Shown here piece after piece: positions 2,464 through 34,142 of a stretch of DNA of 44,605 bases (positions are counted from its first letter, which is position 1; every line of letters starts with the position of its first letter). This DNA is from Dehalococcoidia bacterium. Lineage in GTDB: Bacteria; Chloroflexota; Dehalococcoidia; Lucifugimonadales; SHYF01. Where the stretch lies: assembly GCA_030651175.1 (NCBI GenBank), contig JAUSCR010000029.1, positions 1-44,605 on the forward strand, read 5' to 3'. The position numbers were made by a program, and so were the translations under genes. Below the pieces are notes generated by a model that was not told the DNA's origin, did not search any database, and worked only from the letters and a program-made list of their open reading frames with translations.

Positions 2464-4170
2464 GTGACCCAAGCCTATACAGCCCTGAAACAGAACGCCC
2501 AGGAGCGGGAGCGCCTTCTGGAAGCCCAGCCCCGTATCCGGGTGGGCACAGCCCTGTGCGGCCTTGCGGCAGGCGCTGGCGGGGTGGCTGATGCCTTTCG
2601 GAAAGAGCTGACGGCCCGGGGCGTGAAGGCGACGGTAAGCGAGGTGGGATGCCTGGGCCTCTGCTACGCCGAGCCTCTGGTTGACATAACGTTGCCAGGT
2701 GGCCCCCGTATCTTCTATGGCAACGTGACGCCGGACCAGGTGCCTGAGTTGGTGCTCTCCCACGTGGTCAGCGGGCGTCCCGTGGCGCAGCGGGCGACGG
2801 CGATGCTGGGTGGCGGGTCTGCACTTAGCATACCCGACCTGCACGACTTGCCCATGATGAAGGGGCAGGTGCGCGTTGCCTTGCGGAACGCAGGCAACAT
2901 AGACCCCACTGACATAGACCAGTACATAGCTGCCGGTGGCTACGCCGCCCTGGACAAAGCACTCAGTGAGATGACTCCCCAGCAGGTTACGGAGCAGGTA
3001 ACCGTTTCGGGGTTGAGGGGTAGGGGAGGGGCGGCCTTCCCCACGGGGACCAAGTGGCGGTTCATTGCCGGCTCGCCAGGCCCGGTGAAGTACATCCTTT
3101 GCAACTGCGAGGAGGGTGACCCCGGCGCCTTCAACGACAAAGGCATACTGGAGTCTGACCCTCACACCCTTGTCGAGGGCATGATCCTGGCGGGCTACGC
3201 CACCGGCGCCAGCAACGGCATCATATTCATCCGCCACGGGCACGAAGGCCCCATTGAGCGCAGCAGGGAGGCCCTTCGCCATGCGTATGAGGCCGGCCTT
3301 CTGGGCAAGAACATCCTGGGTAGTAGCTTCAGCTTCGAAGCAGAGGTCTCCCTGGTGGGTGAGTCGTACGTATCTGGCGAGGAGACGGCACTTATGGAGG
3401 CCGTGGAAGGTAAGCGGGCCATGCCGCGGTTTCGTCCGCCATTCCCAGCCGCTGTTGGAGCCTGGGGCAAGCCAAGCAACATCAACAACATCAAGACCTT
3501 GGCCTACGTTCCGGAGATCATAGCCAAAGGCGGTGCATGGTTCGCGGGCATTGGAACGGAACGCAGCAAGGGCACGGCCATCCTGTGCCTCTCTGGCAGC
3601 ATCCGGCGGCCTGGCATGATGGAGGTCCCCATGGGCATGACCCTGCGACACGCCCTGGAAGAGATGGCGGGAGGCGTGCCTGATGGAAGGCGACTGAAGC
3701 TGCTGCAAACGGGCGGGCCGCTGGGTGGCGTGCTCAGCGCCGACAAGCTGGACGTTGCCATGGACTTCGATGCCATGGCCCGCGCGGGGGCAATCCTGGG
3801 ATCCGGCGGCATCATCGTCGCCGACGATACCGCCTGTGCCGTGGACCTGACGCGGCTGCTGGTGGCCTTCTGCCAGTACGAGTCGTGCGGCAAGTGTTTC
3901 CCCTGCCGGCTGGGGACAACCCACATGCTGGAGATTTTGGAGCGCATATGCCGTTTCCAGGCCCAGCCAGGCGATATAGACCTGATGCGTGATATTGGGA
4001 GAAGCATGGCGGTCGGCTCCCTGTGCGGCCACGGTCAACTGGGTTTCAACCCAGTGCAGTCGGCGCTCAACTCCTTTGCGGATGAGTTCGCCGCCCATAT
4101 TCAAGAGAAGCGGTGCCCTGCTGGCGTATGTACCGGAGAGTACCTGACTCCCCAGCATTCCAGGCGATAG
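2464..4170 (+). CDS. NuoF/HoxF/FdsB-type NADH-binding FMN, [4Fe-4S] flavoprotein subunit with an N-terminal thioredoxin-like domain
   Basis: 568 aa with GLRGRGGAAFPTGTKW (FMN/NADH site), CNCEEGDPGAFNDK and ESCGKCFPCRLGT (4Fe-4S N3 site). Confidence 0.9.
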   Translation: MTQAYTALKQNAQERERLLEAQPRIRVGTALCGLAAGAGGVADAFRKELTARGVKATVSEVGCLGLCYAEPLVDITLPGGPRIFYGNVTPDQVPELVLSHVVSGRPVAQRATAMLGGGSALSIPDLHDLPMMKGQVRVALRNAGNIDPTDIDQYIAAGGYAALDKALSEMTPQQVTEQVTVSGLRGRGGAAFPTGTKWRFIAGSPGPVKYILCNCEEGDPGAFNDKGILESDPHTLVEGMILAGYATGASNGIIFIRHGHEGPIERSREALRHAYEAGLLGKNILGSSFSFEAEVSLVGESYVSGEETALMEAVEGKRAMPRFRPPFPAAVGAWGKPSNINNIKTLAYVPEIIAKGGAWFAGIGTERSKGTAILCLSGSIRRPGMMEVPMGMTLRHALEEMAGGVPDGRRLKLLQTGGPLGGVLSADKLDVAMDFDAMARAGAILGSGGIIVADDTACAVDLTRLLVAFCQYESCGKCFPCRLGTTHMLEILERICRFQAQPGDIDLMRDIGRSMAVGSLCGHGQLGFNPVQSALNSFADEFAAHIQEKRCPAGVCTGEYLTPQHSRR

Positions 4171-4176
4171 CAGGTC

Positions 4177-4313
4177 GCTGAAACAGAGGAGTCCAGAGGG
4201 GCGAAGCCCCTTTGGCAGGGGTCTGGGGGTGTCCCCCAGATATCCCTTTCACCCCCTTCCTGGCCAGGAAGGGGGCAGGGGGATGGTCGAGGAAGTTATC
4301 ATCACCCTGATAG
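4177..4313 (+). repeat. Family-A three-hairpin composite repeat, copy 1
   Basis: Head GCTGAAACAGAGGAGTCC; H1 AGGGGCGAAGCCCCT; H2 CTGGGGGTGTCCCCCAG; H3 CCCCCTTCCTGGCCAGGAAGGGGG; tail GGGGATGGTCGAGGAAGTTATCATCACCCTGA. Begins 6 nt after the nuoF-like stop. Confidence 0.9.
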
Positions 4314-8690: not shown

Positions 8691-8731
8691 GCGCAGCGAA
8701 GAATCTAAAGCGTTAGGATTGACCTCGGCAG

Positions 8732-8847
8732 GCTGCCGAAAAAGAGGAGTGCAGAGGGGCGAAGCCCCTTTGCTGGGGGTCTGGGGGTATCCCCCAGATT
8801 TGTTTTCTACCCCCTTCCTGGTAGGAAGGGGGCCAGGGGTATGGTAG
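8732..8847 (+). repeat. Family-A composite repeat, copy 2
   Basis: GCTGCCGAAAAAGAGGAGTGCAGAGGGGCGAAGCCCCTTTGCTGGGGGTCTGGGGGTATCCCCCAGAT...CCCCCTTCCTGGTAGGAAGGGGG...GGTATGGTAG. Confidence 0.9.
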
Positions 8848-8860
8848 CACCGACGTGCCG

Positions 8861-9010
8861 GAGTTCAGGGCGAGCGGATTTGTTTACTCCCGCTCGTGGT
8901 GAGCTTGTCGAACCACGTGAGCGGCCTAATAATCCCGCTCACCCTGAGCCTGTCGAAGGAAATGAGCGGTCCGTTCTCATGTCACCCTGAGCGCAGCGAA
9001 GGGTCTAAGG
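8861..9010. repeat. Cluster of family-B hairpin modules
   Basis: CCCGCTCGTGGTGAGCTTGTCGAACCACGTGAGCGG, then TAATAATCCCGCTCACCCTGAGCCTGTCGAAGGAAATGAGCGG, then GTCACCCTGAGCGCAGCGAAGGGTCTAAGG. The last is a direct repeat of the 8682-8712 module. Confidence 0.8.
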
Positions 9011-12158: not shown

Positions 12159-12368
12159 GCCTGCTGAGAAAGGGGAGTCCAGGGGGGCGAAGCCCCCTTG
12201 GCGGGGGAACTGGGGGTGTCCCCCAGGCTCAATTTCACCCCCTTCCTGGCCAGAGCTCCGACTTTGTCGAGAGTTCCGATAAATCGAGAATGCTCGACGG
12301 TAGTCGGACCTGTCCTGAGTATGGCGAAGGAAAGGGGGACAGGGGGATGGTCGAAAGAGTTGGTGTGC
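12159..12368 (+). repeat. Family-A composite repeat, copy 3, with a nested about 75-nt insertion inside hairpin H3
   Basis: Head, H1 and H2 are intact. H3 is split: CCCCCTTCCTGGCCAG [AGCTCCGACTTTGTCGAGAG...CCTGTCCTGAGTATGGCGAAG] GAAAGGGGG. Followed by the tail GGGGATGGTCGAAAGAGTT. Confidence 0.85.
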
Positions 12369-13470: not shown

Positions 13471-14313
13471 TTGGCATTGAACTCCGATAAAGCAGAGCTA
13501 ACTATTATCAGCGATGGGAATATCAAGCTTGACGGCGGAGCGATGTTTGGCCAGGTGCCTAAAGTCTTGTGGGAGCAGAAAACGCTGCCCGACCGGAGGA
13601 ATAGGATATCCCTGGGGCTGAACTGCCTTCTAATCAGGAACGGCGGTCATTGTACCCTGGTAGACACTGGAGTAGGCAGCAAGGAACCCGATAAGATAAA
13701 AGACCGGTATGGCCTGGGCAGCAGCCAGTTGGCCAAGGAGCTCCGGAACCGGGGACTGACTCCCAAAGATATTACCGGGGTCATTTTGACCCACCTCCAC
13801 TTCGACCATGCCGGAGGCAGCACCCGTCTGGACCGTGCCGGTGAGGCGGTGCCCACTTTCCCCGCCGCCAAATACTATATCCAAAAAGCCGATTGGGAGG
13901 AGGCTATTTCTCCCAACGAACGGTCCAAGGGGTCCTACCACAGCGACGATTTCCTGCCCCTGGAAGAGCGAGGGCAACTGATTCTGCTGGAGGGTGACTC
14001 GGAGGTTGCCCCAGGCGTGCACGTGAGGGTCACAGGCGGTCACTCCCAAGGCCACCAGATGGTGTTGGTGAACTACGGGGGTGAGCGGGTAGCCTTCATG
14101 GGCGACCTGGTTCCAACGCCCCATCACCTCCGGTTGCCGTATGTTACCTCCTATGACCGGTTTCCTGAAGACACGCTGGAGAAAAAACGAGCCTTGCTAG
14201 AGGAGGCCGAAAGGTGCGGATGGCTTATCGTTTTTTGTCACGGCTCCAAAGAGCGTGCCGGATACATTGAACGACGGAACGGTGCGCTGAGCTTTCGTCC
14301 AGTAGAGCTATAG
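13471..14313 (+). CDS. MBL-fold metallo-hydrolase
   Basis: 280 aa with THLHFDHAGG (the HxHxDH motif) and downstream His/Asp ligands (GGHSQGH, FMGDLV). TTG start preceded by GGGGAGG. Confidence 0.8.
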   Translation: MALNSDKAELTIISDGNIKLDGGAMFGQVPKVLWEQKTLPDRRNRISLGLNCLLIRNGGHCTLVDTGVGSKEPDKIKDRYGLGSSQLAKELRNRGLTPKDITGVILTHLHFDHAGGSTRLDRAGEAVPTFPAAKYYIQKADWEEAISPNERSKGSYHSDDFLPLEERGQLILLEGDSEVAPGVHVRVTGGHSQGHQMVLVNYGGERVAFMGDLVPTPHHLRLPYVTSYDRFPEDTLEKKRALLEEAERCGWLIVFCHGSKERAGYIERRNGALSFRPVEL

Positions 14314-14468
14314 GCTGCTGAAAAAGGAAAGTCCAGAGGGGCGAAGCCCCTTTGGTGGGGGACTGGGGGTATCCCCCAGATATGCTTTTCACCCCCTTCC
14401 TGGCCAGGAAGGGGGTCATGGGGATGGTCGAAGGAGTTTTTCATCACCCTGATAAGCTGCTGAGCAGG
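14314..14468 (+). repeat. Family-A composite repeat, copy 4 (most complete copy)
   Basis: GCTGCTGAAAAAGGAAAGTCCAGAGGGGCGAAGCCCCTTTGGTGGGGGACTGGGGGTATCCCCCAGATATGCTTTTCACCCCCTTCCTGGCCAGGAAGGGGGTCATGGGGATGGTCGAAGGAGTTTTTCATCACCCTGATAAGCTGCTGAGCAGG. It fills the entire gap between the convergent MBL and mtaB genes. Confidence 0.9.
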
Positions 14469-18436: not shown

Positions 18437-18488
18437 CAGAAACAGGTTATGGTTGCTTGGCAGGAATGTCCAGTCCTCCGACTAGGTG

Positions 18489-18633
18489 GCTGCTGAGAAA
18501 TGGGAGTCCAGATGGGCGAAGCCCCGGAGCTCCGACAGGTCGAGAGTCTCGACGAAGTCGGACCTGCCCTGAACGAAGTGAAGGGGTGGGGGTCTGGGGG
18601 ATGGTCGTAGATGTTTTTCGTCACCCTGACAGG
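18489..18633 (+). repeat. Family-A composite repeat, copy 5 (rearranged: extra modules inserted after H1; H3 missing)
   Basis: GCTGCTGAGAAATGGGAGTCCAGATGGGCGAAGCCCC, then [GGAGCTCCGACAGGTCGAGAGTCTCGACGAAGTCGGACCTGCCCTGAACGAAGTGAAGG], then GGTGGGGGTCTGGGGGATGGTCGTAGATGTTTTTCGTCACCCTGA. Confidence 0.8.
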
Positions 18634-20861: not shown

Positions 20862-20997
20862 TCCAGGAGGATACAAGGAACCAAGGTTCCTTGTCGGGGG
20901 TTTGGGGGTGTCCCCCAAGAACCTCTTCTTCCCCCCTCTCCCTTGCCAAGGGAGAGAGGGGGACTGAGGGGGTAAGGGTTGGGGGGTGGGGTAGCAC
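20862..20997 (+). repeat. Family-A composite repeat, copy 6 (variant subfamily with different H1 and H3 stems)
   Basis: H1' CAAGGAACCAAGGTTCCTTG; H2 TTGGGGGTGTCCCCCAA; H3' CCCCTCTCCCTTGCCAAGGGAGAGAGGGG. Module order and spacing match the canonical copies. Confidence 0.75.
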
Positions 20998-21083
20998 CCC
21001 GCGGCATCGAGCGCGGGCTGTCAACAGACCCGAGTAGCTTCTGGGAGGCTGATGCAGTGAACACTCTGGGCAAAGGTGGCCGG

Positions 21084-22364
21084 ATGGACATCCACTGCTC
21101 CTTCTGTGGCAAGGCACAGGCGCAGGTAAAGCAGCTCATCGCCGGGCAGAACAAGGCTTTCATATGCGATGAGTGCATAGCCCTCTGCCAGCAGATCGTC
21201 GCCGATCAGGCAGAAGCCAGGCCCGTGCCCGCATCGGCTGCCAAGCCCGCCCGTCTGCCAGTACCCAGAGAAGTCAACCGCTTGCTGGGTGAGTACGTCA
21301 TCGGCCAAGAGCGGGCCAAGAAAACACTCAGCGTGGCCGTGTACAACCACTACAAGCGGATAACCCAGACCGGCCACTCCGCCGACGTAGAGGTACAAAA
21401 AAGCAACGTGCTCCTCATTGGCCCCACAGGGTCCGGGAAAACCCTCCTGGCCCAAACCCTCGCCCGCATCCTGGACGTGCCGTTCTGCATCTCCGACGCC
21501 ACCTCCCTGACAGAGGCGGGGTACGTCGGCGAAGATGTGGAGAACATTCTCCTCCGTCTCATCCAGGCTGCCGACTACGACATCCCCAGGGCGGAGCGGG
21601 GCATAATCTACCTGGACGAGATCGACAAGATAGCCCGCAAGGGTCCCAACCCTTCCATCACCCGGGATGTATCAGGCGAAGGCGTGCAGCAGGGCCTGCT
21701 CAAGATCATTGAGGGCACCATAGCCAACGTGCCGCCTCAGGGAGGCCGGAAGCACCCCCAGCAGGAGTTCATCAAAATCCAGACGGAAGGCATACTCTTT
21801 ATCTGTGGCGGAAGCTTTGAAGGGTTGGACAAGATCATTGAGAAGCGCGTCTCCTGGGGCAAGCGCTCCCTGGGATTCCGTGCCCAAGGGTCTGAAGAGC
21901 AGGAGGATGACGTTGCAGAGGTCCTGAAGTTAGTCTCCACAGACGACCTCCTTCAGTACGGGTTCATTCCAGAGCTGATAGGACGCCTTCCCGTAATGGT
22001 GACCCTGGAACCGCTAGACAAGGCGGCGCTGGTCCAGGTGCTCACGGAGCCAAAGAACGCCCTGGTCAAGCAGTACCGGCACCTGCTCAGCCTGGACGGC
22101 GTGGCCCTAGAGTTCACCCCCGCCGGCCTGGACGCCGTGGCGGAGGAGGCGCTCAAGCGCAAGACCGGCGCCAGGGCGTTGCGCACCATCATTGAAGAGA
22201 CACTCCTGGATGTCATGTTCGAGCTGCCATCACTCCAGGGCGTTGAGCGGTGCGTCATAGATGCGGATACCATCCGTGAAAAGAAGCGGCCCACCCTGCT
22301 CACCGCATCCGGCCAGCCGCTGGAAGACTGGTCAGCCTCCCAGCAAAAACGGGAGGTCGCGTAA
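21084..22364 (+). CDS. clpX: ATP-dependent Clp protease ATP-binding subunit ClpX
   Basis: Zinc finger [31 protein letters not shown], Walker [16 protein letters not shown], Walker [10 protein letters not shown] and a sensor region. ATG 21084 is preferred. The upstream extension from 20979 is repeat read-through. Confidence 0.95.
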
Positions 22365-22415
22365 GGGCGGCTGGTGTGCCAGGGACATCCTGGACTCCCT
22401 CAGAATGACATAAAA

Positions 22416-22453
22416 AGAGGAAGGCCCCTGGAAATTTCCAGGGGCCTTCCTCT
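22416..22453. terminator. Strong GC-rich hairpin; bidirectional terminator candidate between clpX (+) and the tRNA (-)
   Basis: AGAGGAAGGCCCCTGG AAATTT CCAGGGGCCTTCCTCT: a 16-bp perfect stem flanked by an A-run on the 5' side. Confidence 0.7.
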
Positions 22454-22462
22454 GTGCAATCC

Positions 22463-22537
22463 TGGTAGCGGGGGCAGGACTCGAACCTGCGACCTTCGGG
22501 TTATGAGCCCGACGAGCTGCCACTGCTCCACCCCGCG
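22463..22537 (-). tRNA. Initiator tRNA-fMet (anticodon CAT), CCA encoded
   Basis: The reverse complement CGCGGGGTGGAGCAGTGGCAGCTCGTCGGGCTCATAACCCGAAGGTCGCAGGTTCGAGTCCTGCCCCCGCTACCA is 75 nt. It has an unpaired 1:72 position (C-U) and three consecutive G:C pairs closing the anticodon stem. It is nearly identical in the 5' half to E. coli tRNA-fMet. Confidence 0.9.
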
Positions 22538-22548
22538 ATGATGAGATG

Positions 22549-22670
22549 GCCCTCATCCCCCTGCCCTCTTCTCCATGCGGAGAAGGGAGAGAGAACGGAT
22601 CTGGGGGATACCCCCAGACCCCCACCAGAATCCCGACCAGTCGGGACTCTGGACTCCCCCAGGGAGGAGG
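22549..22670 (-). repeat. Family-A composite repeat, copy 7 (reverse orientation, variant stems)
   Basis: The plus strand reads H3'' CCCTCTTCTCCATGCGGAGAAGGGA, H2 CTGGGGGATACCCCCAG, H1'' AGAATCCCGACCAGTCGGGACTCT, then GGACTCCC (reverse complement of the head GGGAGTCC). Lies between the 23S trailer and the tRNA-fMet. Confidence 0.75.
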
Positions 22671-22671
22671 T

Positions 22672-22728
22672 TTCACGCTATTACAAGGGAACATTTGGGA
22701 ACTGCAATGTTCTGTACGAGACTTAATG
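22672..22728 (-). other. 23S rRNA 3' trailer half of the processing stalk
   Basis: The reverse complement of 22672-22728 (CACATTAAGTCTCGTACAGAACATTGCAGTTCCCAAATGTTCCCTTGT...) matches plus-strand 25747-25806 almost base for base. Most differences would be G-U pairs in the RNA. Confidence 0.75.
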
Positions 22729-25746
<3,018 letters not shown>

Positions 25747-25806
25747 ACACTAAGGCTCGGACAGAACCTTGCACTATTTCCCCAAATATTCCCTTGTTAA
25801 AGTACA
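25747..25806 (-). other. 23S rRNA 5' leader half of the processing stalk
   Basis: Complementary to 22672-22728 (see that feature). The helix encloses only the 23S gene. Confidence 0.75.
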
Positions 25807-25916
25807 AGAAGCGGCGGCCAGGTTTCCCAGGCCGCCGCCTTGGATATCACTGGCCGATGCTCCTACGTTCAGGTCTGGAAGCTCACCAAAGACACTCTCC
25901 TTTAACCTGCCTTGGT

Positions 25917-25946
25917 ACTATACCAAGCCAGCACACCCCTAGTCAA
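25917..25946 (-). promoter_or_regulatory. Candidate sigma70-type promoter for the 23S rRNA - tRNA-fMet unit
   Basis: The minus strand reads TTGACT (25946-25941), 18-nt spacer, TATAGT (25922-25917), about 170 nt upstream of the mature 23S 5' end. Confidence 0.5.
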
Positions 25947-26032
25947 GGGGGTATACCCACCAATCATCCGTCCCGTTTGCGTCGCATGGGCGGGGACGAA
26001 TGACGTTGAGTATGCCCCGCTCCTCCATGCCC

Positions 26033-26061
26033 TTGACCCTCCGCTGTCGCCTCCATATAAT
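26033..26061 (+). promoter_or_regulatory. Near-consensus sigma70-type promoter for the comD/comE-like genes
   Basis: TTGACC (26033-26038), 17-nt spacer, TATAAT (26056-26061), about 90 nt upstream of ATG 26155. Divergent from the rRNA promoter. Confidence 0.6.
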
Positions 26062-26154
26062 GCGCTCTGACGGCCCGGTATTCGAGCCCAGGGCATTGCC
26101 TACCCTTGATTGGAGGCCAACCCCTGGGAATAGGGAAGCGTAACAGGAGGGCAT

Positions 26155-26706
26155 ATGACCTCTCAGCAAGCAATCCTCAGTCCCGCAGCGATGATCCAAG
26201 AGTTCAAGAAGAACGGCGTCACCCACGTGGTATGCCTGCCCGACAGCGAAACCAACTATCTGTACGAGATGATGGAGGCCGATCCTAGCCTGGACATTGT
26301 GCCTGTGGCCCGGGAGGGCGAGACTATGGCCATAGCCGCTGGCCTCCTCGTGGGAGGCAAGCTTCCCGTCTGCCTCATCCAGAACACCGGCATGCTTGAG
26401 TCCGGCGACTCCATACGGGGGCTGGCGCTGGACCTAAACCTTCCTATGGTGCTAATAATCGGCTACCGAGGCTGGACTCGCCACGGTGTCACCCCTGACT
26501 CTGCGGCACGCTTCACGGAGCCATTCTTGCAGGCTTTGAACATAAACTACTACCTGGTGGAAACCGACGAAGATGCGCCTCGCATCTCCACCGCCTTCCA
26601 GGAAGCCAAGGCCAACAACCGCCCAGTGGCAGTGCTCATAGGCGATGAGTACCACGGGTTTAACCGGCCAACTGAGTGGCCGGCTAGACCCAAAGGAAGA
26701 GGCTAG
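26155..26706 (+). CDS. Sulfopyruvate/phosphonopyruvate decarboxylase alpha-subunit-like protein (TPP enzyme N-terminal pyrimidine-binding domain)
   Basis: 183 aa. GVTHVVCLPDSETNYLYE...VPVAREGETMAIAAGLLVGGKLPVCLIQNTGMLESGD is typical of ComD / Ppd N-terminal halves. AGGAGG RBS. Confidence 0.75.
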   Translation: MTSQQAILSPAAMIQEFKKNGVTHVVCLPDSETNYLYEMMEADPSLDIVPVAREGETMAIAAGLLVGGKLPVCLIQNTGMLESGDSIRGLALDLNLPMVLIIGYRGWTRHGVTPDSAARFTEPFLQALNINYYLVETDEDAPRISTAFQEAKANNRPVAVLIGDEYHGFNRPTEWPARPKGRG

Positions 26707-26841
26707 CCCAATCGCACACCCGTAGAAAAAGTTTTGTCGCTCCAGGCGGGAGGTGGAAGCGACAGGAGGAGCGGGCCTACACGTAGTATTACCCTTTGCC
26801 ACCACCAAGCGGATAGCGTCAAGTCAAGAGGAGGTTGAACC

Positions 26842-27423
26842 ATGATAAACCAGCGAGACATGATGGCAGTCCTGAACAAGCACCGCGGCAATGCCGTAGT
26901 GATCCCTACCATGAGCGCCGGCGCAGCGTGGCTGGATTCTAGCCACCTACCGGCACGTGATGTAGCCATTAGCGGAGCCATGGGAAAGGCCTCCTCTTTC
27001 GCCTTGGGAGTGGCCTTGTCCAGGCCCGACCTCAAGGTCATCATAATGGACGGCGATGGCAGCCTGGAAATGAACCTGGGATCCATGGCCACCATTGCTG
27101 GGAAGCATCCTGAGAACTTCTACCATTTCGTCCTGGAGAACGGCGTGTACGCCATTACTGGGGGCCAGCCTATTCCTGCCTCAGGCACAATTTCCTTCTC
27201 TAAGATAGCCCTGGGTGCGGGATACGCTGCGGCCTACGAGTTCGACGAGTTGGAGGATTTCAGCCTGCGCATCGGGGACATCCTGAAGCAGAAAGGCCCC
27301 GTCTTCGTGACCGTCAAGGTCGTGCCAGAAATCCAGAACGAGCCCATAGGTCGCAGGCCCAGGGGCACTGGCCGCACCATCCAAGTGGCCATGCGCGATC
27401 TGCATGAGTCCCTGAAATCGTGA
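26842..27423 (+). CDS. Sulfopyruvate/phosphonopyruvate decarboxylase beta-subunit-like protein, copy 1 (TPP diphosphate-binding domain)
   Basis: 193 aa with GAMGKASSFALGVAL...VIIMDGDGSLEMNLGSMATIA (the GDG-x(24-27)-N TPP motif region). GAGGAGG RBS. Confidence 0.75.
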   Translation: MINQRDMMAVLNKHRGNAVVIPTMSAGAAWLDSSHLPARDVAISGAMGKASSFALGVALSRPDLKVIIMDGDGSLEMNLGSMATIAGKHPENFYHFVLENGVYAITGGQPIPASGTISFSKIALGAGYAAAYEFDELEDFSLRIGDILKQKGPVFVTVKVVPEIQNEPIGRRPRGTGRTIQVAMRDLHESLKS

Positions 27424-27474
27424 TACCCAGCCCCATAGGTTCGCCGCCAGAGATTTCCGAATCGCCTCTTGCAG

Positions 27475-27658
27475 GTTGCGGAAAAGGGAAGTCCAGAGGG
27501 GCGAAGCCCCGGAGCCTGCCCTGAGCAAAGCCGAATGGGTGGGGGTCCGGGGGTATCCCCCAGATATAACTTTTGCCCCCTTCCTGGCCAGGCCTGTCCT
27601 GAGTAGGCCGAAGGAACTGGGCCAGGGGGATGGTCGAAAGAGTTCTTCATCACCCTGC
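27475..27658 (+). repeat. Family-A composite repeat, copy 8 (with two extra CCTG(Y)CCTGAG...GCCGAAGG modules)
   Basis: Head and H1, then [GGAGCCTGCCCTGAGCAAAGCCGAATGGG], H2 CCGGGGGTATCCCCCAG, H3 left arm CCCCCTTCCTGGCCAGG, [CCTGTCCTGAGTAGGCCGAAGG], then the tail GGGGGATGGTCGAAAGAGTTCTTCATCACCCTG. Confidence 0.85.
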
Positions 27659-27669
27659 TAAGGATAACT

Positions 27670-28233
27670 ATGATTCCATCGCTGGAAGCAGTCAAAGCCA
27701 TTCATGCCCACCGCCAGAAGGCCCTGGTGGTGGCCACCATGACCGCCCGCGAGGAGTGGGACGCCATTTCCCAGGACCGCTCGCTGGACTTCCCGCTGTT
27801 TGGCTGCATGGGCAAGGCCTCCTCCTTTGGACTGGGCCTTGCGCTGGCGCAGCCAAAGCGGAAGGTGCTGGTGATAGACGGCGACGGCAGCCTGCTGATG
27901 AACCTGGGTTCGCTGGCAACGGTGGCCAACAAAGCGCCGGCCAACTACTACCACTTTGTCTTTGAAGACGGCGTATACACCACCACGGGTGGCCAGCCCA
28001 TACCGGCGGCAGGCAAGGTATCCTTTGCCGGCATGGCCCGGGCCGCTGGGTACGCCGCAGCCTACGAGTTCGATAATCTAGAGGAACTGGTGACCGAGGT
28101 AGGACGCATCCTTCAGCAACAAGGCCCCGTGTTGGTCTGCCTGAAGGTGCGCCACGGGGAGATACCCAAGTCTGCGCCTCGCACCATCCAGCAAGCGGTC
28201 AAGGAGCTGCGAGATCTGCTGGCGAGAGCGTGA
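27670..28233 (+). CDS. Sulfopyruvate/phosphonopyruvate decarboxylase beta-subunit-like protein, copy 2 (tandem paralogue)
   Basis: 187 aa with GCMGKASSFGLGLAL...VLVIDGDGSLLMNLGSLATVA...GYAAAYEF. Roughly half the residues are identical to the 26842-27423 product over the full length. Confidence 0.75.
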   Translation: MIPSLEAVKAIHAHRQKALVVATMTAREEWDAISQDRSLDFPLFGCMGKASSFGLGLALAQPKRKVLVIDGDGSLLMNLGSLATVANKAPANYYHFVFEDGVYTTTGGQPIPAAGKVSFAGMARAAGYAAAYEFDNLEELVTEVGRILQQQGPVLVCLKVRHGEIPKSAPRTIQQAVKELRDLLARA

Positions 28234-28364
28234 CGGGGCCGCTAGCTTAGCGATGAACAGGCATCAGCTTTGTAAGAGCCGCACGGGTAGGACTGCGAGT
28301 TCATAGGCCCCGCAATGGTTCATCCGTGGAATCTCAAGATACGCGTATCAGATGCCACCCCGCC

Positions 28365-29348
28365 CTAAAACCCCGGCGGCGTGTCCACCGGCGTCACCCA
28401 ACCCTCCAACCGCTGTCCACGGCGCAGCGCGGCAAACTGCAAATCCTTGCCAACGCTTCCGCCCGTCAGCAGCCGGTGAACATGGTCTATGGTGGGAGTC
28501 GGCTGGCCATCAAGCTGGATGAGGAGGTCGCCCTGCTGGATGCCCGCCTTCTCCGCTGGACCGCCCGACGCCACGGCGGAGATGAGAACACCGCTCTGCT
28601 GGCCGTCCACTCCTCCGCCTAGCTGCCCCTGCCCGTTGGCGGGTTGCAAGCGCATCGTCTGGGCGGCGATGCCCAGGTATCCGCGAGAGACATGTCCCTG
28701 CTTCATGAGGGCTGTGCTCACCCACTTGGCCGTGTTGATGGGCACGGAGAAACATATCCCCTGAGCGTGCTGGATTACGGCTGTGTTCATGCCTATGACA
28801 TGGCCCAGGGTGTTGACCAGTGGCCCGCCGCTGCTGCCGGGGTTCAACGCCGCATCCGTCTGGATAATGTTGTCTATCAGCCGCCCTGTCTGGCTGCGCA
28901 GGGACCTTCCCAGGGCGCTCACAACGCCCGCCGTGACTGTGGCCTGAAGTCCGAACGGATTGCCGATGGCTATTACAAGCTCGCCGACCCGCAGGGCGTC
29001 GGAGTCCCCCAGATCAAGCATTGGAAGGCCCGACGCGCCCACCCGCAACACAGCGATGTCGGTATCAGGGTCGTCGCCCACCACCTCGGCCCCGTAGGTA
29101 GCGCCGTTGGGAAAGGCCACATCCAGATGGGGCATCCCGTGAGCAACGTGGCTGTTAGTCAAGACGAAGCCATCGGGAGCAATGACGAAGCCGGAAGCGG
29201 AGCCCTGGAGCTGCCAGGGTTCATGGCCACGACGGCGCGGAGGCTCCTGGCGCTGAAAGTTGATGCTCACCACCCCCGCCCCCACCCGCTCCACCAGGTC
29301 GGCCAGCGCCTGCGAGTAGGCCCGTAGAACCTCTCTTCCTTCCTGCAT
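28365..29348 (-). CDS. HtrA/DegP-family trypsin-like serine protease with a C-terminal PDZ domain
   Basis: Catalytic triad contexts TNSHVAHG, DTDIAVLRV and NPGSSGGPLVN. PDZ segment GVLISAVASGGPAEKAGIQQGDLLIQLDG. ATG 29348 (CAGGAGTA RBS) is preferred over 29444. Confidence 0.85.
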   Translation of the reverse strand: MQEGREVLRAYSQALADLVERVGAGVVSINFQRQEPPRRRGHEPWQLQGSASGFVIAPDGFVLTNSHVAHGMPHLDVAFPNGATYGAEVVGDDPDTDIAVLRVGASGLPMLDLGDSDALRVGELVIAIGNPFGLQATVTAGVVSALGRSLRSQTGRLIDNIIQTDAALNPGSSGGPLVNTLGHVIGMNTAVIQHAQGICFSVPINTAKWVSTALMKQGHVSRGYLGIAAQTMRLQPANGQGQLGGGVDGQQSGVLISAVASGGPAEKAGIQQGDLLIQLDGQPTPTIDHVHRLLTGGSVGKDLQFAALRRGQRLEGWVTPVDTPPGF

Positions 29349-29440
29349 GCGGTACTCCTGGCAGGTTGCTGAACCCCGACACGTCGTGGCGACTATCCCC
29401 TGTGCCAGTTCCTGGGGGCTTGTCCCAAAAGAGCTTGACC

Positions 29441-29553
29441 TCACCCCCTGTGTCCCCCTCTCCGCGTCGGAGAGGGGGAGTTTTGAATCTGGGGGATACC
29501 CCCAGACCCCCAGAGGGAACCGAGGTTCCCTGCACCCTCCTGACTTTTCAGGC
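29441..29553 (-). repeat. Family-A composite repeat, copy 9 (reverse orientation, variant stems)
   Basis: The plus strand reads H3' CCCCCTCTCCGCGTCGGAGAGGGGG, H2 CTGGGGGATACCCCCAG, H1' GAGGGAACCGAGGTTCCCTG. Begins 8 nt downstream of the jag stop. Confidence 0.75.
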
Positions 29554-29561
29554 GGCTCCGC

Positions 29562-33231: not shown

Positions 33232-33966
33232 ATGCCACGCCCAGACAAAAAAGCGAGAATTGACCTGCTGCTGGTGGAACGCGGCCAGGCGGAGAGCCAG
33301 CAGCGGGCCCAGGCTCTCTTAATGGCTGGACAGGTCACGGTGGACGGCCGCCTGGTGGATAAGGCAGGTGCCCTGGTCAGCCGAGGCGCCAAAGTGGAAG
33401 TGGAGATGCCGCCGCTCTACGTAGGCCGGGGCGGCATCAAGCTAGCCCACGCTCTTCAGACGTTCGCCTTGAAGGTGGAAGGGGCGACAGCGTTAGACGT
33501 AGGATCCTCCACGGGCGGCTTCACCGATTGCCTCCTTCAGCACGGCGCTTCCCGTGTCTACGCATTGGACGTGGGCTATGGCCAACTCGACCTGCGTCTG
33601 CGGCAGGACCTCAGAGTCGTAGTGAAGGAGCGGGTGAACGCCCGATACTCATTTGAACTGCCTGAGATGGTAGACCTGGCCACTGTGGACGTCTCCTTCA
33701 TCTCGCTGGCCAAGGTGTTGCCTTCGGTGGCGGAACACGTGAAGAGCGGCGGGCACATGATAGTTTTGGCGAAGCCCCAATTCGAGGCGCAACGCCGCCA
33801 GGTGGGCAAAGGGGGCGTGGTGCGCGACCCCGCCATCCATGCGGATGTGTTGGCGCGGCTGATTGTGTGGGCCACGCACCACCGTTTCAGGCTGCGGGGA
33901 TTGACGCCCTCGCCCTTGCTGGGAGACGCAGGCAACCGGGAGTTCTTCTTGCTGCTGGAGACATAG
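33232..33966 (+). CDS. tlyA: TlyA-family rRNA (cytidine-2'-O)-methyltransferase (S4 and FtsJ-like domains)
   Basis: 244 aa. S4 domain RIDLLLVERGQAESQQRAQALLMAGQVTVDGRLVDKAG. SAM motif ALDVGSSTGGFTDCLLQHGA. C-terminal GNREFFLL. Confidence 0.9.
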   Translation: MPRPDKKARIDLLLVERGQAESQQRAQALLMAGQVTVDGRLVDKAGALVSRGAKVEVEMPPLYVGRGGIKLAHALQTFALKVEGATALDVGSSTGGFTDCLLQHGASRVYALDVGYGQLDLRLRQDLRVVVKERVNARYSFELPEMVDLATVDVSFISLAKVLPSVAEHVKSGGHMIVLAKPQFEAQRRQVGKGGVVRDPAIHADVLARLIVWATHHRFRLRGLTPSPLLGDAGNREFFLLLET

Positions 33967-33972
33967 CAGGGC

Positions 33973-34106
33973 GATGAACAACTCCCTCGACCATCCCCCT
34001 GGCCCCCTTCCTGGCCAGGAAGGGGGGTGAGAAGTATATCTGGGAGATACCCCCAGTCCCCCACCAAAGGGGCTTCGCCCCTCTGGACTCCGATTTTTGA
34101 GCAGCC
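33973..34106 (-). repeat. Family-A composite repeat, copy 10 (reverse orientation, canonical stems)
   Basis: The plus strand reads the reverse complement of the tail (CCTCGACCATCCCC), H3 CCCCCTTCCTGGCCAGGAAGGGGGG, H2 CTGGGAGATACCCCCAG, H1 AGGGGCTTCGCCCCT, then GGACTCC and TTTTTGAGCAGCC. This is the only copy opposed to the upstream gene. Confidence 0.9.
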
Positions 34107-34113
34107 GGTTCGT

Positions 34114-34142
34114 TTGACCCTCCATGAATGGCGGGGTATAAT
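34114..34142 (+). promoter_or_regulatory. Near-consensus sigma70-type promoter of purF
   Basis: TTGACC (34114-34119), 17-nt spacer, TATAAT (34137-34142), 28 nt upstream of the TTG start at 34171. Confidence 0.6.

Follow-up and report, generated by a model that had tools for sequence, protein, structure and literature searches.

The 44,605-nucleotide (nt) stretch of DNA analyzed here (the window) is contig JAUSCR010000029.1 of the metagenome-assembled genome (MAG) GCA_030651175.1 of a Dehalococcoidia bacterium, from a groundwater metagenome. It harbors copies of a dispersed, non-coding repeat with three hairpins, H1, H2, and H3. Three of these copies, located at 20862 to 20997, 22549 to 22670, and 29441 to 29553 as a first-pass annotation had reported, differ from the canonical (family-A) form in their H1 and H3 arms. 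We are confident that the three copies belong to sister families of a superfamily of MITEs (non-autonomous miniature inverted-repeat transposable elements) and are not, as that annotation had proposed, family-A copies that drifted by compensatory substitution. The best overall explanation, to which we assign a probability of roughly 0.6, is that these are MITE sister families whose hairpin fold is under selection and exerts its effect in transcripts.

The repeat and its sister families

The element measures approximately 140 to 150 bp and is built in the order terminal inverted repeat, H1, a run of five G residues (G5), H2 (CTGGGGGTRTCCCCCAG), linker, H3, a second G5 run, and terminal inverted repeat. 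Canonical H1 is a 10-bp stem, CCAGAGGGGC-gaa-GCCCCTTTGG, with one G.T wobble. The genome (G000), a draft MAG of 2.48 Mb in 199 contigs, contains 239 H2 cores with two or fewer mismatches, a lower bound, since the repeat probably fragments the assembly: several contig ends bear a copy (e.g., C19:1, C2:69, C170, and C171). Nine of these cores are in the window, where 0.01 would be expected. The gap between H1 and H2 is 7 to 9 nt in 157 of 231 genomic copies, with a further class at 37 nt that is due to a nested module, and hairpins score 22 at the H1 position and 30 at the H3 position, compared with 13 and 15 in shuffled segments.

Alignments anchored on H2 reveal terminal inverted repeats and sharp boundaries. 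The termini of family A (approximately 18 bp) are TAGCAGGCTGCTGAAAAAG / rc TAGCAGGGTGATGAAAAAC (rc, reverse complement), and its elements read (C)TAG-CAGGCTGCTGAAAAAGG ... GTTTTTCATCACCCTG-CTA(G). Family B has the termini GGCGTTGTCTCAAAAGTC / rc GCCTTGTCCCAAAAGTC and reads GGCGTTGTCTCAAAAGTCAGG ... GGTCAAGGACTTTTGGGACAAGGC, and family C, with the terminal inverted repeat TAGAGGCTATTCCGAAA, reads TAGAGGCTATTCCGAAA ... TTTCGGAATAGCTCCTA. When folded as single strands, the consensus sequences form a closing stem from the terminal repeats plus the three hairpins, a four-way junction with z-scores of -4.4 to -6.2. Arm types were defined by clustering left and right arms separately. Left arms comprise 77 of type A (and 46 more with a nested module of approximately 26 bp), 36 of B, 13 of D, 10 of C, 7 of A', and small classes; right arms comprise 102 of type A (31 more nested), 28 of B, 11 of C, and others. 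The halves assort in mixed combinations (A+A 56, B+B 24, D+A 8, B+A 4, and C+A 2), and the families are therefore mosaics recombined around a shared core. Two chimeric elements with a B left half and an A right half (C45:4969 and C80:8107 in G000) are flanked by direct repeats of 14 to 23 bp, unlike either parent family. The nested module, GGAGCCTG(C/T)CCTGAG-N4-6-GCCGAAGG, lies after H1 (46 copies) or in the H3 loop (31 copies) of family-A elements, as at 27480 to 27640 in the window; strict matches to its pattern occur 23 times on one strand and 17 times on the other.

The three window copies share the layout H1, 7 nt, H2, 9 to 13 nt, H3, with H1 and H3 arms that differ among copies and are self-complementary in each. 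The 7-nt spacer from the 3' end of H1 to H2 is the same as in canonical copies. The module order and spacing described in the first-pass annotation are thus as reported, and so is the replacement of the H1 and H3 arms by other hairpins, although the stems are longer than it had indicated.

The copy at 20862 to 20997 (plus strand; outer bounds uncertain) is of E type, a rare sister family with three members in the genome. Its relatives are C126_10255 and C199_574, and one other E-type copy consists of an E left half and an A right half. H1 (ACAAGGAACC-aa-GGTTCCTTGT) spans 20873 to 20894, 7 nt upstream of H2, and H3 (CCCCCTCTCCCTTG / CAAGGGAGAGAGGGGG, with one bulge) spans about 20931 to 20962, both on the plus strand. 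H2, on the same strand at 20902 to 20918, is a variant (TTGGGGGTGTCCCCCAA) with three differences from the canonical sequence, including a compensatory change of the closing pair from C-G to T-A; the earlier claim that H2 is kept applies to the other two copies and not to this one. In G002, one of two genomes of the same genus used for comparison (the other being G001), the orthologous spacer instead contains an A element whose H3 harbors a nested B element.

The copy at 22549 to 22670 (minus strand) carries a D-type H1 and lies between a 23S rRNA gene (22729 to 25745, minus strand) and a tRNA gene (22466 to 22537, minus strand), co-oriented with both. Its H1, CCAGAGTCCCGAC-tg-GTCGGGATTCTGG (CCAGAG-TCCCGAC-tg-GTCGGGA-TTCTGG), at 22625 to 22652, is followed by the 7-nt spacer, H2 (CTGGGGGTATCCCCCAG) at 22601 to 22617, and an H3 variant (CCCTTCTCCG-ca-TGGAGAAGAGGG) at 22564 to 22587, all on the minus strand. 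This H1 retains the stem base of family A (CCAGAG/CTCTGG), with the tip swapped for a CCCGAC-N-GTCGGG palindrome that occurs 104 times genome-wide in many contexts. The tip is a block replacement by a ready-made self-complementary module and not, as had been supposed, the product of stepwise compensatory substitution, which we see only within families. The order of 23S rRNA gene, repeat, and tRNA gene occupies 22466 to 25745, and no 5S or 16S rRNA gene was detected in the window at the Rfam gathering score. In G001 the spacer between the 23S rRNA and tRNA genes is 82 bp long, and only an H3-like hairpin is left there.

The third copy is an ordinary family-B element. What had been described at 29441 to 29553 is its core; with terminal inverted repeats included, the complete MITE spans about 29418 to 29558 on the minus strand. 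H1 (GCAGGGAACC-tc-GGTTCCCTC) is at about 29513 to 29533, followed by the 7-nt spacer, H2 (CTGGGGGTATCCCCCAG) at 29489 to 29505, and H3, (T)CCCCCTCTCCG-acg-CGGAGAGGGGG(A), i.e., TCCCCCTCTCCG-acg-CGGAGAGGGGGA, at 29453 to 29479, all on the minus strand. The terminal repeats have diverged from the family-B consensus (GGCGTTGTCTCAAAAGTC / GACTTTTGGGACAAGGC), and the element adjoins a remnant of an A-type right end. At this site, G001 has an orthologous spacer of 38 nt without the element, and G002 carries an A/D-type element. Family B, with at least 36 copies, termini of its own, and 9-bp duplications, is a sister family and not a set of drifted family-A copies.

Direct repeats of at least 7 bp flank 27 of 40 family-B elements with readable flanks (43 hits), compared with approximately 2% when flanks are re-paired, and the mode is 9 bp. 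In one case a B element has entered the H3 of an A copy and duplicated CCAGGAAGG, and the same target has been struck in G002. Insertion of B elements into A-type elements, with duplication of C(C/G)CAGGAAGG, has taken place repeatedly in the 3' arm of H3 (e.g., C159:6753, and L030 in contig C90 of G002) and arose independently in two species. Family-A elements end as YTAR|CAGG...CCTG|YTAR, with CTAG on both sides in 36 of 132; the duplication is either TA or the YTAR 4-mer, as 2 and 4 bp both fit. When the joined flanks of 26 A copies were searched against G001 and G002, contiguous matches were found in both, with a single 4-mer in place of the 4-mer, element, 4-mer arrangement of G000 (CTAT versus CTAG[..]CTAG; TTAA versus TTAG[..]CTAG; CCTAT versus CTAA[..]CTAT). 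Clean empty sites were obtained for C20:11615, C169:16258, and C164:142. For the window's own copies the corresponding sites are not clean, given the approximately 15% divergence of the sister species and the presence of other family members in these spacers. The terminal repeats, target duplications, and empty sites indicate that families A and B are true insertions, i.e., MITEs.

The terminal TAG of family A coincides with the stop codon of an open reading frame (ORF) of at least 100 codons entering the element at 25 of the 82 left ends and at 14 of the 82 right ends, compared with 0 to 2 at neighboring offsets; examples in the window are at 4167 to 4170 and 14307 to 14313. This suggests that insertion at YTAR often hits, and regenerates, TAG stop codons.

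The core is patchily distributed within the order: five genomes have 186, 87, 81, 79, and 35 copies, and most have none. Across GTDB it is almost confined to MAGs of uncultured Chloroflexota/Dehalococcoidia whose sources are groundwater, lakes, and sediments. The 23-nt core also has one exact match in each of three Streptomyces genomes (loci L131, L150, and L168), probably due to chance in high-G+C DNA. At the Rfam 15 gathering score the window matches only 23S rRNA and one tRNA, and no copy of the repeat matches any family.

Covariation of the hairpin arms

Our results demonstrate that the two arms of a stem change together, in two ways: by stepwise compensation within families and by replacement of whole-stem modules between families and genomes. 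Within families, we counted changes in an ungapped alignment of 48 columns, comprising 49 distinct A-like H1+H2 rows from three genomes. Two-sided changes occur at 6 of 17 pairs, in 16 cells, compared with 1.4 pairs and 1.7 cells in shuffled rows (0 of 500 shuffles reached the observed values) and 0 to 4 cells in slid controls. The covariation score is 0.122, compared with 0.080 in shuffles (again 0 of 500); the null model here consists of shuffled and slid rows. Tallied over approximately 4,400 pair observations, two-sided changes restored a Watson-Crick pair 28 times and failed to do so 3 times, and one-sided changes numbered 148. Pair swaps were found at H1 positions 1 (C-G to G-C and to T-A), 5 (A-T to G-C), 6, 7, 8, and 10 and at H2 position 1.

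When all types are aligned together with MAFFT, stems of unequal length are misaligned and H1 is missed by RNAalifold; covariation was therefore assessed with the ungapped class described above and with alignment-free arm swaps. Between families, among 13 classes of H1, cognate arms pair at -20.0 kcal/mol and swapped arms at -7.3 kcal/mol, and among 11 classes of H3 the corresponding values are -20.8 and -10.6 kcal/mol. For neither hairpin did any of 200,000 permutations reach the observed total. The covariation analysis of genomic copies called for in the first-pass annotation thus supports its statement that both arms change together with pairing retained. The 113 copies from other Chloroflexota MAGs have 41 and 45 distinct arm pairs, and the gap between H1 and H2 is 7 to 8 nt in 49 of 54 of the copies from these MAGs. 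In G040, from another family of the order (loci L031 to L050), A-type termini, H1, and H2 are kept, and two small hairpins stand in place of H3: ATCCGCC-gya-GGCGGAT or ATCCCC-gaa-GGGGAT, followed by AACCCCC-ttga-GGGGGTT. These replacements covary among themselves (ATCCGCC/GGCGGAT, ATCCCC/GGGGAT, and ATCCTTC/GAAGGAT).

In H2 and the two G5 runs it is the sequence that is conserved; H1 and H3 are conserved only as hairpins. The proposal that selection acts on structure rather than on sequence is accordingly the best reading for H1 and H3 and does not extend to H2 and the G-runs.

It had been considered that the variant stems might be unrelated palindromes standing beside H2 by chance. High G+C content does favor short palindromes, but nothing beyond that speaks for such an origin, and the shared 7-nt spacing, G-runs, and homologous termini and tails, the dozens of copies per type, and the permutations and shuffles leave it with practically no probability.

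Level at which selection probably acts

We consider it probable that the structure is under selection. Among the 56 A+A copies, all ascertained through H2, the per-site difference from the consensus is 0 to 5% in stems and G-runs, 10 to 30% in the terminal repeats, and up to 60% in the linker between H2 and H3. Compensated states are present in multiple copies (the GC state in 6 copies and 2 haplotypes; A-T to G-C in 7 copies and 3 haplotypes), and mismatched states are nearly all singletons. At orthologous sites in the same-genus species, whose coding identity is 83 to 96%, H1 has been lost in one case (G002) and H3 together with half of H2 in another (G001); at other orthologous sites the copy is absent or another family member is present instead. 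The decay of orthologues, taken together with the multicopy compensated states, suggests that selection acts on lineages that propagate or are retained and not on each copy.

The orientation of the copies points to transcripts. In spacers whose flanking genes run in the same direction, 114 copies are co-oriented with the genes and 30 are anti-oriented (P = 1e-12), and the bias is found in family A (40:9), in A with the nested module (25:5), and in B (16:3). The bias remains when the flanking genes run against the regional gene majority (28:7) or the GC skew (38:18), which indicates that orientation follows transcription and not only replication; replication strand as the sole cause was rejected on the same grounds. 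In the sense direction, H2 is followed by at least five T residues within 8 nt in 48 of 102 family-A copies, 11 of 11 family-C copies, and 1 of 28 family-B copies. The antisense counts are 0 for all three families and 2 of 59 for unclassified copies.

From these observations we propose that the folding of one strand is selected, with selection acting chiefly on those element lineages that continue to multiply or are retained, and that the fold most likely matters in read-through transcripts, as copies follow gene direction 4:1. It may serve as a 3' hairpin that stabilizes or ends mRNA, with H2 and its T-rich tail terminator-like in families A and C, and insertions that fold in the sense orientation may be tolerated or useful. 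That the relevant molecule is RNA we hold only tentatively, at somewhat less than even odds.

A number of points weigh against this proposal. Ascertainment through H2 inflates that hairpin's apparent conservation, the orthologous loci inspected number only about six, and the gene calls used for orientation come from a crude codon-usage caller. Family B, nearly devoid of the T-rich tail, is equally co-oriented, so that termination cannot be the general reason for the bias, and the copies are spread over tandem, convergent, and divergent spacers nearly as background would predict. Mismatches display no strand asymmetry (43 G.T versus 34 A.C overall; 11 versus 12 in H2) and thus lend no support to RNA-specific selection on individual copies. 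The fold-based wobble count is biased by the inherited G.T wobble of H1; the within-family count is cleaner and is likewise without asymmetry. As a test for RNA, wobble asymmetry is uninformative rather than negative. Sequencing runs were also searched: the window is present in DNA runs, and RNA runs match only the conserved 23S part. An autonomous partner with matching termini was not found, as pairs of terminal repeats 1 to 3 kb apart all enclose ordinary genes. A profile search detected no IS630-type gene (PF13358) in this draft genome, and PF01609 (DDE_Tnp_1) yielded a single truncated ORF at a contig end, again without matching termini. The mechanism of movement is consequently inferred from the element ends alone, and since a draft MAG may have lost insertion sequence (IS) copies, the absence of a partner is weak evidence. 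An IS630-like element of G001 was discarded as a partner because its ends are unrelated.

An alternative, which we regard as unlikely but the most serious of those considered, is that the hairpins are needed in DNA: H1, H2, and H3, extruded as single-stranded hairpins or cruciforms, would be read by the transposition machinery or a host factor so that only intact stems are mobilized, and the orientation bias would be a side effect of, for instance, one strand being exposed during replication or transcription. This would agree with stems and G-runs that are better conserved than the terminal repeats, with an H2 sequence conserved as a protein-binding palindrome would be, with the multiplication of compensated variants, and with the balance of G.T and A.C mismatches, and it has a precedent in REPINs and RAYT, where hairpin-preserving changes are common (PMC3116915). 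However, the 9-bp and TA/YTAR duplications and the terminal inverted repeats are typical of DDE transposases, whose substrates are double-stranded ends, and orientation tracks local gene direction even against the regional majority and GC skew. Nor did any repeat-rich genome searched provide the enzyme: no Y1/RAYT gene (PF01797) was detected in G000, G001, G002, G020, G034, or G040, and the RAYT lead raised in the first-pass annotation ends there. We likewise reject classification as RAYT-mobilized REP sequences, since the elements are approximately 145 bp long, have terminal inverted repeats and target duplications, and lack a GTAG/CGTC tag.

It is also possible, although improbable, that structure is not selected at all and that independent small palindromic modules, each self-complementary by its very build, insert or recombine, with template switching inside quasi-palindromes copying changes from arm to arm. 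The 104 occurrences of the palindrome at the D-type H1 tip, the dozens of nested 26-bp modules after H1 or in H3, the landing of B elements in H3 of A elements, and the exchange of H3 for other hairpins in G040 all fit this idea, as does the conversion of the H1 G.T wobble to G-C in 12 separate haplotypes. It leaves unexplained, however, why a hairpin constantly lies 7 to 8 nt before H2, why five positions of H1 and one of H2 show single-pair swaps that bring back Watson-Crick pairing, why 89 of 112 copies retain the G.T wobble, why stems are 5 to 10 times less variable than linkers, and why orientation is biased. A domesticated, host-beneficial structured RNA, with each copy under purifying selection as a regulon-wide riboregulator in 3' untranslated or intergenic regions, a terminator, or a processing site, would account for the strong co-orientation with genes, the strong conservation of stems among paralogues, the copy within an rRNA-tRNA transcription unit, and the presence of the core in many Dehalococcoidia MAGs. 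We judge it quite improbable, as same-genus orthologues are missing, replaced, or without hairpins while flanking genes remain 83 to 96% identical, copy numbers within a single order run from 0 to 186 per genome, no Rfam family is matched, and the mismatch types bear no RNA signature.

A more speculative idea, and a rather unlikely one, is that the three-hairpin core is portable cargo, either a transcript-end or insulator module or a recognition structure for an undescribed structure-reading mobilization system. Such cargo would have been captured and exchanged by at least two mechanistically different MITE vehicles (TA/YTAR versus 9 bp) and spread through many families of uncultured Dehalococcoidia, with selection acting on its fold and not on the transposon ends.

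Other window copies, related repeats, and implications

Besides the three copies discussed above, the window contains further copies with an H2 core. A canonical family-A copy with the ends ATAG|CAGG...CCTG|ATAG is located at 4167 to 4313 (plus strand; H2 at 4223 to 4239), and its orthologues in G001 and G002 are present and have decayed differently. The second canonical family-A copy, at 14307 to 14455 (plus strand; H2 at 14363 to 14379), occupies nearly the entire spacer between convergent genes and is absent from the orthologous 63-bp spacer of G001. Family-A copies are also found at approximately 8727 to 8872 (plus strand; H2 at 8781 to 8797), where a nested palindrome alters the right end; at 27468 to 27661 (plus strand; H2 at 27547 to 27563), with the nested module of approximately 26 bp both after H1 and in H3; and at approximately 33960 to 34115 (minus strand; H2 at 34040 to 34056), the only window copy that runs against its flanking genes. 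A family-A' copy with H2 at 12210 to 12226 (plus strand) has a nested insertion in its H3 loop. In a degenerate copy at 18437 to 18592, the 5' arm of H2 runs straight into the G-run that follows H3 (GGTGGGGGTCTGGGGGATGGTCG), as if deleted between the two G5 runs; its orthologue in G001 has the H2 variant CTGTGGG-gtgg-CCCACAG, a compensatory change from G-C to T-A.

Among insertion sequences, the IS903 group of the IS5 family generates 9-bp duplications, and the IS5 and IS427 groups target YTAR/TA. The duplication lengths and YTAR target of families B and A presumably match these groups, and the family-B terminus GGCGTTGTCTCAAAAGTCAG presumably resembles an IS903 end; we regard both as leads only. 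In this genome and the sister genomes examined, the searches turned up no IS whose termini match.

For REPINs and bcr1 it is already established that interspersed repeats undergo compensatory change. As summarized by Delihas (2011; PMC3184786), bcr1 is an interspersed repeat of the Bacillus cereus group, approximately 155 bp long, that is flanked by short direct repeats of 5 bp, has been shown to be transcribed, and has a distribution not conserved between related strains; compensatory base pair changes keep a cruciform-like multi-stem fold, and some copies seem to have lost the structure. It resembles the Dehalococcoidia elements in size, patchy distribution, flanking direct repeats, a compensated multi-stem fold, and loss of structure in some copies. 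It differs in that the Dehalococcoidia elements have TA/YTAR or 9-bp duplications, bear no sequence relationship to bcr1, and form sister families that share an invariant central hairpin and exchange the side hairpins. In REPINs, compensatory changes have been described as "common" (Bertels and Rainey, 2011; PMC3116915). Like our elements, these are high-copy extragenic palindromic repeats with conserved ends and a variable spacer that must still pair, and they and REP sequences are mobilized by RAYT and may fold in single-stranded DNA or mRNA (PMC3116915; PMC3733652). The elements described here differ by the absence of RAYT/Y1 and of the GTAG/CGTC tag, by target duplications with classical terminal inverted repeats, and by three local hairpins in place of one long doublet hairpin. 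A REP unit, moreover, is a palindrome of 20 to 40 bp without target duplication.

The pneumococcal BOX, RUP, and SPRITE repeats (Croucher et al., 2011; PMC3049150) are modular and MITE-like, with terminal repeats that pair in the predicted RNA fold; their orientation mirrors coding bias, they are enriched downstream of genes, and SPRITE is terminator-like. Modularity, paired terminal repeats, and coding-biased orientation are shared with the Dehalococcoidia elements, and the terminator-like SPRITE has a possible counterpart in families A and C. The phylum and sequences differ; BOX varies in boxB number and the elements here exchange side hairpins, and here two target-duplication classes share one core. 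The BIMEs of Escherichia coli and the Correia and ERIC elements are mosaics of palindromic units in intergenic spacers with orientation-dependent effects on mRNA stability, attenuation, or cleavage, and Correia elements duplicate TA. Our elements have no sequence similarity to any of these and no evidence of IHF or RNase III type.

What is new is an abundant MITE superfamily in an order known only from metagenomes, which is undescribed in the literature searched; our search returned nothing on MITEs in Dehalococcoidia. One invariant core is shared by elements of two target-duplication classes, the hairpins and not the transposon ends are the best-conserved parts, and insertion is frequent exactly at TAG stop codons. 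For annotation, the elements probably break MAG assemblies, and they extend or create false ORF starts, and supply the TAG stop of about a quarter of adjacent ORF ends. The 4:1 co-orientation together with the exchangeable hairpins provides a natural test set for how mobile repeats are screened out or recruited as 3' structures of mRNAs.

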